The notes under the pieces are model-generated. The model made no database searches. It was not told the origin of the DNA and was given only the letters and a program-made list of their open reading frames with translations. Shown here in pieces: positions 17,432 to 19,981 of a stretch of DNA of 64,000 bases. Within the stretch, counting starts at the first letter, position 1. Each line of letters starts with the position of its first letter. The DNA is from Gammaproteobacteria bacterium. Lineage in GTDB: Bacteria > Pseudomonadota > Gammaproteobacteria > SZUA-140. The translations under genes and the position numbers were made by a program. The stretch lies in NCBI GenBank assembly GCA_021648525.1, contig JAKISP010000008.1, positions 13,744 to 77,743 of the forward strand, in the 5' to 3' direction.

Positions 17432-17971
17432 CTAATGCAGAGTATGCTCCGCAATGAGTGGACGGTATTCCCGAATTAAAAAAGCAATAAGTTGCACCGC
17501 GCGTGCCGCCAAAAGCAGATTAATTTTCCCGCCTTCAATCAGCATCATATGTCGATAGCTCAGCTTTTCGGCACTGTGGTAGTTGAGGCTGAATCCAATG
17601 AGGGGCAGTTCATTGTTAATATTTGCGATGTGACGACTCAGCACATCATATTGAGCGGGCTCTACTTCGAGCTCCAGATCAACATAAAACTGAATATAAT
17701 CAAAACTACCGAAACCTGAAGTTGCCGGGTTCGCACCTGAATCATCCTCTGCCGCCAGAGCGCGATGAGCACTGGAGGCAAGGGTAATTTTTAATAACAG
17801 ATCAACCGCCTGCTGATTTTCAGAGGTGTCGTCCGCAGCAAGTGAGACAAAGATCGCTTCAATCGGGTTATCCGCTGTGGCAGCAAAATGTGCATCCATG
17901 CCCACCTTTTGCAGTGCGCTAGCAAGTTGCTGCAAATTTTCTGCCGAAACGGCGCTACGTTTTTTAAACAC
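17432..17971 (-). CDS. Hypothetical small acidic protein; possible partner or chaperone of the upstream large protein
   Basis: 179 aa, rich in D/E. It starts 15 nt after the stop of the 664-aa ORF on the same strand. Confidence 0.5.
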   Translation of the reverse strand: MFKKRSAVSAENLQQLASALQKVGMDAHFAATADNPIEAIFVSLAADDTSENQQAVDLLLKITLASSAHRALAAEDDSGANPATSGFGSFDYIQFYVDLELEVEPAQYDVLSRHIANINNELPLIGFSLNYHSAEKLSYRHMMLIEGGKINLLLAARAVQLIAFLIREYRPLIAEHTLH

Positions 17972-17986
17972 AATGCTCTCTCAAAA

Positions 17987-19981
17987 TTATTTTGGCAACA
18001 ACTTCATTTTACCAAGCAGCAATTTTTTCGCTTTGGCTTGCGCTGCATCGTCTCCCTGCATAGATGCAATGATCATATTGGGGTCAATACCCAACGTGGT
18101 CAGCAGTTCACCTGTGGCACTCTTAAATGATTTTTCGGTTCCATCACTCACTTCAACGGCATCACTGCCCTCTTCGCCCACCAATGCGGCGAGAATGCCA
18201 TTATAAACATCGTCACCGGCAGCCTCAACATCATATTTCTTGAGATAGGCGTTGAGTTCTATCAGGCGCTGACGAATCGTCATACTGCCGCTTTTACTGC
18301 GACTGAACAGTTTGTTAAACCAGCCCTTTGTCTCTGCCGTTTTGAAATCTTTACGATGCCATGTCTGGTCAGGTAAATTAGGGTTTTGTGCGACCTGAGC
18401 ATTGATCATATCGCGCTCTTCACGCATGCGCAGCACATTACTGCCTCTAATCTTACGTTTGACTTTTTTTCCAACGGAGTAGACCAGCACCCCGATGGTG
18501 GCCAGACCGATCAGAGTCCAGCCGATGGGCGTGGCAGCGGCAGCGACACCACCAATGGTGGCGGCAAGCAGCGCCGCACCACCTGCAGCACCAAGAAAAT
18601 TTAACGAGGCCGTGCCAGCCTTCTCTTTATAACCCTGCTTGCGTTTTGAAAGTTCCAGTCCAGAAATCATTTTGACCATCAGTGGCATTTTGCTTTGTAG
18701 CGCCAATATGTCTGCGTTAATACCAGATTCAAATGCAGTTGCGCCCCTAAGAATGGTGCTATGAATAACGGCTGTGCCCGGATCCTGCTCGTCATCAGGT
18801 CTGAATAGATATTTTGTGGAGAGGATATACTGTTTCTGCGCCGACCTTAATTCATTATTCTTATTCTCAATTTTAGCGCCATAACTCTCTAGCAACGCTT
18901 GCGTGAATTCGATAAATGTCCCTGTTGCCTCCTGATTTTTACGCCGCTTGTGGGCATTCAGCGAGTCGCGGATACCGTTGATGGTGCCAAGGAGTGCAGC
19001 CAACCCTGCACCGATGCCAAAGGTGATGACACTGATCACAGCCGTCGCCGTGTTGGCGACGGCGGAGAGACTGTTTAGCAACGTAGTGACGCCATTGATG
19101 ACGCCATTAATACTGGTACTGAGCTGTTCGATATTTTCGAGGTCGCCGGTGAGCGCCTTCTGCTTCTCTTTTTCAAGCACATTGACAGCGGCGTAAAGCT
19201 GCTGGTTGCCCGCTTCATAATTAGTTCTGGCGGCTTGCAACGCAGCGCTTTTTGCTTTTGTCTCACTCTGCACCAATCCTTTAATGGCCATAGCGCCGGT
19301 ATAGAGATTCGCCCCTACTGCCAGGCCACCTCCAGTTGCCGACACATTAGCGTGGGTGCCGCCACCTGCCCCGATATTCCCCATATTAGGTTCTGGCAGC
19401 GCGTTAGGATTTAAGGCGTTTGCCATCGAAGGGCCAGCTGTTCCCGTGCCCAGGTATGCGCCTGTCGCATCTACAGCACCTGCAAAATCATTTTTCACAT
19501 CAAGGTCTTCGTTATCGCCCCCTGACTTCGAGGCACCAAACCGTCTTGCACGTTGCACCGGAAGTACAGCATGATTACACGTCGCTACGGCGACGTCAGA
19601 CAGTACATCAGACGCTGAGGTTGCGGACGCATCATCACCTATAGCGGGCAGCCGAGTTTGCGAGCTATTGTTAATATTAACCTGTAGCTTGCGCTGTACT
19701 GCCGCTTCAGAGCGGTTATTCTTGAATTTATCCTGGAGGTTGTTAAAGCTGCTTTTTTTCGACTGTATGGGAGAGTGTGTCGGTAGAGGCATCAATTTTG
19801 CTACTGACAGCGCATTTTCTCTGGTTTGTGCGCTATTATTAATACTATCCTGCAGCTTGCACTGAGCAACCCTATCAGGACGGTTATCCTCAAATTTAGT
19901 CTGCTGGCTATTATTCGATGCAGAGACAGATTCTGCCCCATTGGTATGGCTGCTTCTGTTAGATTGTGTGTGTGTCAGCAT
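17987..19981 (-). CDS. Large hypothetical protein with an N-terminal Q/N/S-rich repeat region, coiled-coil segments and two Gly/Ala-rich hydrophobic hairpins
   Basis: 664 aa with no signal peptide. Hydrophobic glycine-zipper-like stretches are AVISVITFGIGAGLAALLGTINGI and LNFLGAAGGAALLAATIGGVAAAATPIGWTLIGLATIGVLVYSV. N-terminal imperfect tandem repeats are KLQDSINNSAQTR / KLQVNINNSSQTR. Confidence 0.6.
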   Translation of the reverse strand: MLTHTQSNRSSHTNGAESVSASNNSQQTKFEDNRPDRVAQCKLQDSINNSAQTRENALSVAKLMPLPTHSPIQSKKSSFNNLQDKFKNNRSEAAVQRKLQVNINNSSQTRLPAIGDDASATSASDVLSDVAVATCNHAVLPVQRARRFGASKSGGDNEDLDVKNDFAGAVDATGAYLGTGTAGPSMANALNPNALPEPNMGNIGAGGGTHANVSATGGGLAVGANLYTGAMAIKGLVQSETKAKSAALQAARTNYEAGNQQLYAAVNVLEKEKQKALTGDLENIEQLSTSINGVINGVTTLLNSLSAVANTATAVISVITFGIGAGLAALLGTINGIRDSLNAHKRRKNQEATGTFIEFTQALLESYGAKIENKNNELRSAQKQYILSTKYLFRPDDEQDPGTAVIHSTILRGATAFESGINADILALQSKMPLMVKMISGLELSKRKQGYKEKAGTASLNFLGAAGGAALLAATIGGVAAAATPIGWTLIGLATIGVLVYSVGKKVKRKIRGSNVLRMREERDMINAQVAQNPNLPDQTWHRKDFKTAETKGWFNKLFSRSKSGSMTIRQRLIELNAYLKKYDVEAAGDDVYNGILAALVGEEGSDAVEVSDGTEKSFKSATGELLTTLGIDPNMIIASMQGDDAAQAKAKKLLLGKMKLLPK

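Follow-up and report, generated by a model that had tools for sequence, protein, structure and literature searches.

The question raised by this locus is what a pair of adjacent genes, one encoding a protein with two hydrophobic hairpins and the other a small acidic partner, might do in DNA with no secretion apparatus found nearby. The window, meaning the whole stretch of 64,000 nucleotides that was analysed, contains only housekeeping and RTX genes among its 20 larger ORFs, and a Pfam scan of these ORFs found no contractile-injection, T3SS or T6SS genes, in agreement with the initial annotation. That annotation had likened the pair to a type III secretion translocator with its chaperone. Its outline of a delivered membrane protein with a small chaperone-like partner holds, and its T3SS kinship and the type of chaperone do not.

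Gene pair and architecture of the large protein

Both genes are on the minus strand and both ORFs are real. The coordinates and lengths given earlier are exact, and no strand had been stated with them. The features of the pair, all read on the minus strand, are as follows.

17202..17431, minus strand: downstream intergenic region, GC 0.383, with no intrinsic-terminator-like site on the minus strand in a terminator scan
17432..17971, minus strand: small gene, 179 aa, start codon GTG, predicted divergent YbjN / T3SS class-I-chaperone-like protein (ORF, pI, pairing and profile similarity)
17972..17986, minus strand: spacer of 15 nt, with a GAGAG Shine-Dalgarno-like element before the GTG
17987..19981, minus strand: large gene, 664 aa, leader plus predicted membrane-inserting C-terminal module (ORF call)
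17990..18469, minus strand: basic C-terminal helical domain, residues 505-664, ending KMKL (conserved; pLDDT 75-89)
18470..18610, minus strand: hydrophobic block 2, helical hairpin with its turn at TPIGW, residues 458-504 (hydropathy)
18518..18583, minus strand: 22-residue hydrophobic stretch GGAALLAATIGGVAAAATPIGW, residues 467-488, invariant in the eight closest members (alignment A1)
18611..18970, minus strand: antiparallel coiled-coil hairpin, residues 338-457 (AlphaFold2 helices)
18971..19081, minus strand: hydrophobic block 1, Gly/Ala-zipper helix-turn-helix, residues 301-337 (hydropathy)
19277..19504, minus strand: Gly-rich conserved linker, residues ~160-235, AYLGTG..GPS...GGGT...GGGL..N (alignment of eight close homologs)
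19532..19981, minus strand: hydrophilic Q/N/S-rich N-terminal leader, residues 1 to ~150, with no hydrophobic segment
19640..19768, minus strand: leader repeat 2, residues ~72-114, KFKNNRSEAAVQRKLQVNINNSSQTR (internal duplication, z = 10.6)
19808..19933, minus strand: leader repeat 1, residues ~17-58, KFEDNRPDRVAQCKLQDSINNSAQTR (internal duplication, z = 10.6)
19982..20139, minus strand: upstream intergenic region, GC 0.367, where the promoter of the pair is presumed to lie

The pair is probably transcribed as one unit. A single sigma-70-like match lies upstream of the pair (20042..20014, GTCACA-17-TATATT, with TG upstream), and promoter-like sites in the upstream intergenic region are not above chance (5 found, 4.6 expected from shuffles). 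The flanking intergenic DNA is AT-rich relative to the window (GC 0.49), as had been noted, but the acquisition deduced from these flanks finds no compositional support, the pair itself being average in GC (0.491) and in GC3 (0.50 and 0.44, against 0.518 +/- 0.061). Scans of the 64-kb window for tRNAs and Rfam families returned nothing, and so gave no clue to an integration site.

The N-terminal leader ends at a V-Q-R-x-x-x-G boundary that is conserved across close homologs in the alignment. The repeats reported in this region are real: local alignment of residues ~17-58 with residues ~72-114 gave a score of 90, compared with 29 +/- 5.7 for shuffled sequences (n=500), and the duplicated motif of the window protein is FxDNR..AQRKLQ..NNSxQ. 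No hydrophobic segment is present in residues 1-160, and the large protein therefore has no Sec signal peptide, as first proposed. The same residues have the hydrophilic, disordered character of eCIS-cargo leaders, being Q/N/S-rich, with disorder judged from composition.

The conserved C-terminal ~500 aa are all-helical and consist of two Gly/Ala hydrophobic hairpins with an antiparallel coiled coil between them, followed by a helical end domain. The module is preceded by the Gly-rich linker, in which G207, G217, G218 and N225 are invariant in eight close homologs and pLDDT is below 50; the Gly-rich stretch GAGGGTHANVSATGGGLAVGANLYTGAMAIKG recorded earlier is present in the protein. Both hydrophobic blocks, delimited by a Kyte-Doolittle 19-residue window above 1.4, are rich in small-xxx-small motifs, again as previously described. 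Block 1 has invariant residues T320, F321, G324, L327, A329, L330, G332 and T333, and then R338, D339 and a basic KRRK stretch. Block 2 has basic residues on both flanks, and within it P485, G487 and W488 hardly vary among the 46 family members. Alignment A1 comprises 8 sequences; identity to the window protein ranges from 33% to 94% over the seven others, and from 33% to 52% once the ortholog P0001 is set aside. The GGAALLAATIGGVAAAATPIGW stretch differs in remoter members of the family, P0009 for example. The invariant motifs of the C-terminal domain are NV.RM..E, W.R, KG.FN, SG, R...YL.KYD and K.KL.

The coiled coil claimed for the protein appears in the AlphaFold2 model as long antiparallel helices between the two hydrophobic blocks (CTD residues 154-233 and 242-289, pLDDT 73-90), in a model of moderate overall quality (mean pLDDT 61.7) that is poor over both blocks. 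The length of this hairpin differs among homologs in alignment A1. Fold searches with the model returned generic helical-hairpin matches only; among the weak matches, ClyA-type alpha-pore-forming toxins appear repeatedly, none of them significant or separable from generic coiled coils. In homologs, the segment made up of the coiled coil and hairpin 2 has weak matches to the membrane-inserting segments of SseC, LeoBC and the bacterial dynamin helical domain.

Family, distribution and the link with DUF4157

Neither protein of the window has a usable match in Pfam, NCBIfam, PADLOC, PHROGs or PDB (sequence). The pair had been called an orphan on first reading, which is incorrect: an exhaustive HMMER search of 1.84 billion representative proteins recovered a large-protein family of 43 representatives at E <= 1e-3, with a conserved pairing to the small gene. 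Family proteins are 500-950 aa in size and their hosts are Cyanobacteriota, Chloroflexota, Actinomycetota and Thiotrichaceae, a patchy spread over four phyla that suggests horizontal transfer of the family and is the sole hint of it. Two metagenome-contig scans, made with the full CTD and with the C-terminal domain only, and two viral-contig scans gave pattern matches and no relatives, a tblastn search of plasmids and phages gave no match, and a word-index search with the leader alone found no relatives among 7 candidates. The family is most likely rare and undescribed.

An N-terminal PF13699 domain (DUF4157/eCIS_core) is present in 7 of the 46 family members, with a best E of 5.5e-34. DUF4157 is a marker of the toxins of extracellular contractile injection systems (eCIS; PMC8213781, PMC11297309). 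In AlgoCIS cargo, a disordered NTD carries the loading sequence and an effector CTD ends the protein, with DUF4157 as an optional element between them; loading requires the NTD and can do without DUF4157 (bioRxiv 10.64898/2026.05.27.728243; PMC8894135). The leader region of the homologs contains, or is replaced by, DUF4157 and its leaders. An LQRxxGNxAV leader occurs in ~16 of the 46 members and, in P0019, together with DUF4157; LQRxxGNxAV is the leader that precedes DUF4157. In the locus L085, a separate DUF4157 gene is immediately upstream of the homolog P0006. The window protein itself has no PF13699 match and no HExxH motif, and its adjoining genes are MYG1 and a pseudouridine synthase.

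The motif of repeat 1 (FEDNRPEAIAQRKMQEMANNSP) flanks DUF4157 in the homolog P0003, and it also opens other genes in the loci L082 and L086, where the genes that begin with FEDNR..QRK are neighbours with different C-termini. Such a leader motif on differently tailed neighbours is the logic of a polymorphic-toxin array. A profile comparison did not detect the 578-aa neighbour in L086 as a divergent paralog of the CTD of the large protein.

Injection or secretion genes were absent within 10 kb of the gene, or to the contig ends, in eight other loci (L081, L085, L089, L090, L091, L092, L093/94 and L095). No CIS operon was found among the 20 window ORFs scanned or over these distances in the eight loci; in a published training set, 88% of known EATs are encoded no more than ten genes away from an eCIS operon (PMC11297309).

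The small partner protein

In nine independent loci, the gene that directly follows the large one is a homolog of the small gene (hmmsearch E = 1e-15 to 1e-27). The intergenic gap in the other loci is 1-13 nt, or 51 nt in L083. No partner gene immediately follows the homolog in L085, L086 or L089. Identities to the window pair are 57%/40% in L081 and 42%/34% in L083, and the small protein thus diverges in step with the large one. The small protein is soluble, without a TM segment or signal peptide, and was correctly described as acidic, but "strongly" overstated a mild acidity (pI 5.13, net charge -9).

Comparison by hhalign of the small-protein family (A6) with the PF10722 protein of L083, a bona fide YbjN, gave a probability of 86.5% (E = 4.5e-6), and the alignment spans the beta-alpha-beta-beta-alpha C-terminal half of the family. 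An hmmsearch of the small-protein family against YbjN gave 17.9 bits, below the curated cut-off; weak PF10722 matches in 6 of 9 small-protein members (best E = 0.0012) and a PF22551 (TY-Chap1) match in 1 of 9 are also below curated cut-offs. The window protein alone has no YbjN match at E <= 1, and a word-index search with it found only its 95% ortholog. The AlphaFold2 model, built from an alignment of two near-identical sequences, has a pLDDT of 44.5, too low for the model to be of use, although its C-terminal half has a strand-helix-strand-strand-helix order; the fold of the superfamily runs alpha-beta-beta-beta-alpha-beta-beta-alpha. YbjN proteins share their fold with the class I T3SS chaperones (PMC5398634, PMC3575483, PMC9503650). 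The profile similarity thus makes the small protein a putative divergent member of the YbjN / class I T3SS-chaperone-like (TY-chaperone) superfamily.

Proposed function and comparison with known systems

The reading preferred here, at a probability of about 50%, takes the two genes for an effector-chaperone cassette belonging to the DUF4157-leader polymorphic toxins, that is, the eCIS-associated or 'PVC-metallopeptidase' toxins. By analogy with AlgoCIS cargo, the duplicated leader may serve as a loading or targeting sequence, with the Gly-rich linker joining it to a new all-helical module. The two Gly/Ala-zipper hairpins would be together at one end of the antiparallel coiled coil, followed by the conserved basic helical domain, and the module would insert into and perturb a target membrane, either by forming a pore or by acting as a destabilising hairpin. 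The small YbjN/T3SS-class-I-like protein is proposed to associate with the effector in the cytoplasm of the producer, where it would hold the hydrophobic hairpins or the unfolded leader in a soluble, harmless state before export; it may provide immunity as well. In outline, the large protein looks delivered and membrane-inserting. Several findings count against the cassette reading: the scanned window ORFs and the surroundings of the eight other loci show no contractile-injection, T3SS or T6SS genes, the window protein has neither DUF4157 nor HExxH, the structural model is poor over both hydrophobic blocks and yields generic fold matches, and the window copy of the small protein has no YbjN match of its own. 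Two more specific versions are put forward tentatively: a previously unrecognised system in which a T3SS-class-I/YbjN-type chaperone is dedicated to a hydrophobic, pore-forming CIS cargo, as Eag chaperones are for T6SS, or, more radically, a leader-bearing membrane toxin that has become independent of any injection machine and gets to its target in some other way, for example by lysis or vesicles.

The same delivered membrane toxin could instead be paired with a cognate immunity protein that acts in sibling cells and not as an export chaperone. The strict gene order and the tight gaps in nine loci (1-15 nt, apart from L083) resemble polymorphic toxin-immunity cassettes, as does the parallel divergence of the two proteins, and immunity genes accompany certain eCIS toxins (PMC8213781). 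Protection from toxins that act on membranes is, however, usually conferred by a membrane or periplasmic protein, whereas this partner is soluble and falls in a peptide-binding chaperone superfamily, and three homologs are without a partner directly downstream; we consider an immunity pair doubtful. An endogenous, non-secreted module is unlikely. It would anchor in the producer's inner membrane through the hairpins and shape or repair that membrane in the manner of the dynamin paddle, ESCRT-III or PspA, with the YbjN-like protein as regulator, and the ESCRT-III and dynamin matches are those of generic helical hairpins. It also leaves unexplained both the N-terminal DUF4157 fusions and the toxin-type leaders common to differently tailed neighbouring genes, and a family this rare and patchy (43 in 1.84e9 proteins) is unlike a housekeeping one.

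An abortive-infection or defence cassette, in which phage infection frees a membrane-disrupting effector that the small protein otherwise restrains, would suit a stand-alone two-gene unit with variable contexts and a patchy distribution; a segment of one homolog matches the PADLOC model LeoBC, and a BrnT toxin gene is near the L085 homolog. Such a cassette is nevertheless quite improbable, as the window proteins and the tested small-protein homologs have no significant PADLOC or PHROGs match, the Pfam scan of the 20 larger window ORFs found no defence-island genes, and DUF4157 leaders indicate export and not intracellular suicide. Hardly credible is the translocator of YopB/IpaB/PopB type with its chaperone, the idea with which the analysis of this DNA began. 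Its appeal is an analogous architecture of coiled coil and two-helix hydrophobic hairpin, as in YopB/SseC/EspD (PF04888), beside a small acidic partner of the broader T3SS-chaperone-like superfamily, and P0018 has a sub-threshold SseC match (26.9 bits against a cut-off of 30.2). Homology is not detectable, however: hhalign of the family profile against YopB gave a probability of 0.1%, YopB and YopD have negative scores with the family HMMs, and the window protein does not match PF04888. T3SS translocator chaperones are TPR class II proteins (LcrH/SycD), whereas the partner here is class-I/YbjN-like and its profile gives no score for LcrH. The hosts of the family belong mostly to Cyanobacteriota, Chloroflexota and Actinomycetota, phyla in which virulence-type T3SS are not known to occur.

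The family bears on how hydrophobic eCIS cargo stays soluble before loading. It offers a defined and conserved effector module, predicted to be membrane-directed, together with a T3SS-chaperone-like partner and natural variants with and without DUF4157, and such variants make the roles of leader, DUF4157 and chaperone separately testable. The compact module would also suit the engineering of membrane-active payloads. Should the hosts prove to have no CIS, the pair would instead point to a use of DUF4157-type leaders outside injection systems. For most predicted eCIS toxins no function is known for the C-terminal domain, and 983 of 1,130 DUF4157-bearing predicted toxins have no other annotated domain (PMC11297309).

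Among systems already described, the ClyA-family alpha-pore-forming toxins (PaxB/XaxB, SmhB, AhlB/AhlC) have no sequence similarity to the large protein. The YbjN family (E. coli YbjN, Erwinia AmyR, Deinococcus DR1245; PF10722) is like the small protein in size and mild acidity, but the small protein is very divergent from it, and no membrane effector is known as the partner of a characterised YbjN protein. The hydrophobic helices of T6SS transmembrane-domain effectors are shielded in the producer's cytoplasm by a small adjacent Eag (DUF1795) chaperone. The pair resembles this arrangement in that a hydrophobic effector is encoded alongside a small dedicated chaperone-like protein, and differs in that the partner is YbjN/TY-chaperone-like and not DUF1795, PAAR and prePAAR are absent, and the hairpins are central and C-terminal instead of N-terminal.

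Tme (BN159_7576) of Streptomyces davawensis is a membrane-localised DUF4157 CIS effector, related to tape-measure proteins, with TM helices and coiled coils (PMC11126660). By description, the fused homologs are similar to it in their N-terminal DUF4157, predicted TM helices, coiled coils and basic region after the hydrophobic part, although Tme exceeds 2,200 aa, is located inside a CIS operon and has an endonuclease end, while members of the present family are far from this size, are encoded away from CIS genes and have no nuclease. For eCIS cargo and EATs in general (AlgoCIS Cgo1/Cgo2; Geller et al. 2021, Danov et al. 2024), the window protein differs in having lost, or never had, DUF4157 and in lacking a nearby CIS operon, its C-terminal module matches no described toxin domain, and a dedicated YbjN-like partner is not reported for such cargo in the cited eCIS papers. 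The common plan of this cargo, a hydrophilic and probably disordered leader, an optional DUF4157 and a variable effector C-terminus, is the one that the family most resembles, with DUF4157 in seven members and leader motifs common to neighbouring DUF4157 genes.

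The gene pair and its surroundings

The pair consists of two open reading frames, which have exactly the positions and lengths assigned to them in the initial annotation:

17987..19981, minus strand, large gene (664 aa)
17432..17971, minus strand, small gene (179 aa, GTG start)

The spacing between them is 15 nt, and a GAGAG Shine-Dalgarno-like element lies ahead of the small-gene start. The small protein, previously called strongly acidic, is only mildly so (pI 5.13, net charge -9). The intergenic DNA on either side of the pair is AT-rich (GC 0.38 and 0.37), as had been described in favor of acquisition, but the genes have a GC content of 0.491 against a window mean of 0.49 and an ordinary GC3, so recent acquisition has no support in their composition.

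The window contains housekeeping genes and two RTX proteins, and no genes of a type III (T3SS) or type VI (T6SS) secretion system or a contractile injection system (CIS) were found among its 20 larger ORFs that were scanned, in agreement with the earlier observation that no secretion apparatus is nearby. The RTX (HemolysinCabind) genes are located at 58610..62170 (minus strand, 1186 aa) and 62896..63987 (minus strand, 363 aa). They are separated by a 215-aa ORF that belongs to no known family, and no type I secretion genes were present among the window ORFs scanned. The MYG1-family gene adjoining the module (16326..17201, minus strand) is unusually conserved. The best 80 of its 378 relatives are 80-92% identical, derive from Colwellia, Psychromonas, Methylophaga, Thiotrichaceae and even Zetaproteobacteria (Mariprofundus), and have non-syntenic surroundings, a pattern that suggests that the gene is under very strong constraint or has been transferred repeatedly. 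The closely related scaffold L090, counted with the window below, has extra genes (3033..5261 and 9913..10326) missing from the window (20719..20776 and 16207..16325): a pair of small ORFs plus a trypsin-like protease of 420 aa in the EamA-pseudouridine synthase interval, and a bacterial globin that separates MYG1 from the other EamA gene. The region around the module therefore differs between strains, and the module itself is kept.

Architecture of the large protein

The Q/N/S-rich repeat N-terminus, the Gly-rich stretch and the two GxxxG-type hydrophobic blocks noticed initially are all real, and the large protein has no hydrophobic N-terminal signal, as had also been stated. The repeat is an internal duplication (residues ~17-58 vs ~72-114) with an alignment score of 90, compared with 29 +/- 5.7 for shuffles (z = 10.6). 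Both hydrophobic blocks are dense in small-xxx-small motifs. Alignments of the eight closest members and of all 46 define the following module behind the hydrophilic N-terminal leader:

Directly after the leader, V-Q-R-x-x-x-G boundary
After this boundary, Gly-rich linker
Residues 301-337, hydrophobic block 1, then RD...KRRK
Between blocks 1 and 2, helical region of variable length among members
Residues 458-504, hydrophobic block 2, with basic residues on either flank
After block 2, basic C-terminal domain of ~160 aa with terminal KMKL

Within block 2, the 22 consecutive residues GGAALLAATIGGVAAAATPIGW (residues 467-488; 18518..18583, minus strand) show no variation among the eight closest sequences; the seven of these other than the query share 33-94% identity with the window protein (33-52% if its ortholog P0001 is left out). 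The stretch is not constant in more distant family members, and P485, G487 and W488 are nearly invariant in all 46. This conservation, far more than a generic transmembrane (TM) helix requires in the case of the 22-residue stretch, points to a constraint on block 2 beyond plain hydrophobicity, which may be specific packing or recognition.

An AlphaFold2 model of the conserved C-terminal ~500 aa, built from the eight-sequence alignment, is all-helical (mean pLDDT 61.7), with a long antiparallel coiled coil (pLDDT 73-90) joining both hydrophobic hairpins at one end and a confident C-terminal domain (pLDDT 75-89); the hydrophobic blocks are poorly modelled. In the homologs P0018 (residues 317-449) and P0017 (residues 348-486), the coiled-coil and hairpin-2 segment gave weak matches to three membrane-inserting regions, namely PADLOC LeoBC (E = 1.5e-9), a bacterial dynamin-like helical domain (E = 1e-3) and, sub-threshold, SseC (26.9 bits vs a cut-off of 30.2). 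These matches are read not as homology but as a resemblance in kind, in that all are helical hairpins that insert into membranes. They may reflect shared composition or distant homology to dynamin paddles.

Family, leaders and DUF4157

Neither window protein matched Pfam, NCBIfam, PADLOC, PHROGs or PDB sequences. A word-index search gave seven relatives of the large protein, and an exhaustive HMMER search of 1.84 billion representatives gave 43 at E <= 1e-3 (26 at E <= 1e-30). The family is real but rare, and the module, with these relatives and with its partner gene downstream in nine loci, is not the orphan it was described as. Named sources are Thiotrichaceae, several Cyanobacteriota (including Spirulinaceae and Sericytochromatia), Chloroflexota (Anaerolineae, Phototrophicaceae) and Acidimicrobiales. 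A syntenic, near-identical copy of the module (93-95% identity) occurs in Thiotrichaceae MAG NORP103 and one metagenome scaffold; the module is absent from the other 79 genomes retrieved via the adjacent MYG1 gene, and plasmid, phage, viral-contig and metagenome-contig collections contained no relatives. The metabolic neighbourhood of the cassette is unrelated from locus to locus. A gene for a TPR and AAA (PF00004) ATPase is found ~1.6 kb upstream of the homolog P0048, on the opposite strand (L092, 7012..8391, minus strand) and outside any CIS operon; extracellular CIS (eCIS) cargo is loaded by AAA+ proteins. A distant branch (P0036-P0046), whose members with source names are Cyanobacteriota or Sericytochromatia, has in common only hairpin 2 (ATPVGW) and the C-terminal domain ending KM.LF, and neither leader type occurs in its long N-termini, which are Q/P/T-rich or coiled-coil.

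An N-terminal DUF4157 domain (eCIS_core, PF13699) is fused to seven of the 46 family members (E down to 5.5e-34), and in L085 a stand-alone DUF4157 gene is situated just upstream of the large-protein homolog. Two leader types were recognized. An LQRxxGNxAV leader opens ~16 members and precedes DUF4157 in P0019; the next gene has a start of the same type, then the ...YEREADRVA... segment seen ahead of DUF4157 in P0004, P0009 and P0014. The window protein and its closest relatives have F-x-D-N-R-x-E-x-x-A-Q-R-K-L-Q-x-x-x-N-N-S-x-Q, which in P0003 stands on either side of DUF4157, and which, in L082 and L086, also starts neighbouring genes whose C-termini are quite different. Polymorphic toxins typically form gene arrays with a common leader and differing tails. 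Neighbours with unrelated C-termini (L086, 2151..4589; L082, 2..1171 and 4717..4857; L089, 4748..5095) carry an FEDNR..QRK or LQRxxGN leader or the tail end of DUF4157; one, of 578 aa, has two other Gly-zipper hydrophobic blocks and no detectable homology to the large-protein family. DUF4157 is the signature of eCIS-associated toxins (PMC8213781, PMC11297309).

The partner protein and the role of the pair

At nine independent loci (the window with L024/L090, counted once, L081, L082, L083/84, L087, L091, L092, L093/94 and L095) the large gene is directly followed by a gene for a small-protein homolog (hmmsearch E 1e-15 to 1e-27), after a gap of 1-15 nt, or 51 nt in the cyanobacterial locus L083; none was found downstream of the large-protein homologs in L085, L086 and L089. 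In the nine-sequence partner alignment, six members match PF10722 (YbjN) weakly and one matches PF22551 (TY-Chap1). Comparison of this alignment by hhalign with a genuine YbjN protein, encoded two genes further along in L083, gave 86.5% probability (E = 4.5e-6), in agreement with hmmsearch of the partner profile (17.9 bits). The fold of YbjN proteins is that of class I T3SS chaperones (PMC5398634, PMC3575483, PMC9503650). A structural model of the small protein, from two near-identical sequences, was unusable (pLDDT 44.5). At L083 3640..5389, in the locus of P0004, the small-protein homolog is followed by a 395-aa protein and then the PF10722 YbjN gene; the C-terminal part of the 395-aa protein is YbjN-like by eye and does not score with the small-protein profile (E = 0.33-0.36). 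If it is YbjN-like, up to three consecutive chaperone-like genes stand behind one DUF4157 effector.

On the best-supported interpretation, with a probability of about 0.5, the pair is a cassette of the DUF4157-leader toxin class that combines an effector with its chaperone. Export of the putatively toxic large protein would be directed by the leader, most plausibly into a CIS encoded elsewhere. The two hairpins of the helical module would enter a target membrane, and in the producer the YbjN-like protein, a candidate chaperone, would keep hold of the hydrophobic or unfolded effector. What the analysis shows is the kinship within the family, the fusions to DUF4157, the recurrent pairing and the YbjN affinity of the partner, whereas toxicity, a chaperone function and the way of delivery are inferred. 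The main weakness of the cargo reading is that no CIS is near any locus examined, the window included; at eight other loci no T3SS, T6SS or CIS genes occur at distances of up to 10 kb from the gene, to the extent that the contigs reach. The small protein is rather unlikely to be an immunity protein instead of a chaperone, and somewhat less probable still is an endogenous membrane-remodelling module. A defence cassette is improbable. The initial idea of a T3SS translocator and its chaperone is partly right, in that the large protein would be a membrane protein destined for delivery and its partner is chaperone-like, but T3SS as the secretion system is very improbable: translocator identity fails direct tests (hhalign 0.1% against YopB, negative HMM scores for YopB and YopD), the partner is of the wrong chaperone class, and no T3SS was found in the window.

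The effector module, hitherto undescribed, has a T3SS-chaperone-like protein as its dedicated partner, and the pair is free-standing, encoded apart from any injection machinery at the loci examined. The case rests on computation alone, and is well defined and experimentally tractable. AlgoCIS cargo has an N-terminal domain (NTD) that is disordered, an optional DUF4157 and an effector C-terminal domain, and its AAA+-dependent loading needs the NTD, DUF4157 being dispensable (PMC8894135; bioRxiv 10.64898/2026.05.27.728243). Tme, a Streptomyces CIS effector in which DUF4157 occurs together with TM helices and coiled coils, is membrane-located (PMC11126660). The window protein fits this cargo plan, but differs in that the metallopeptidase domain is absent from it.
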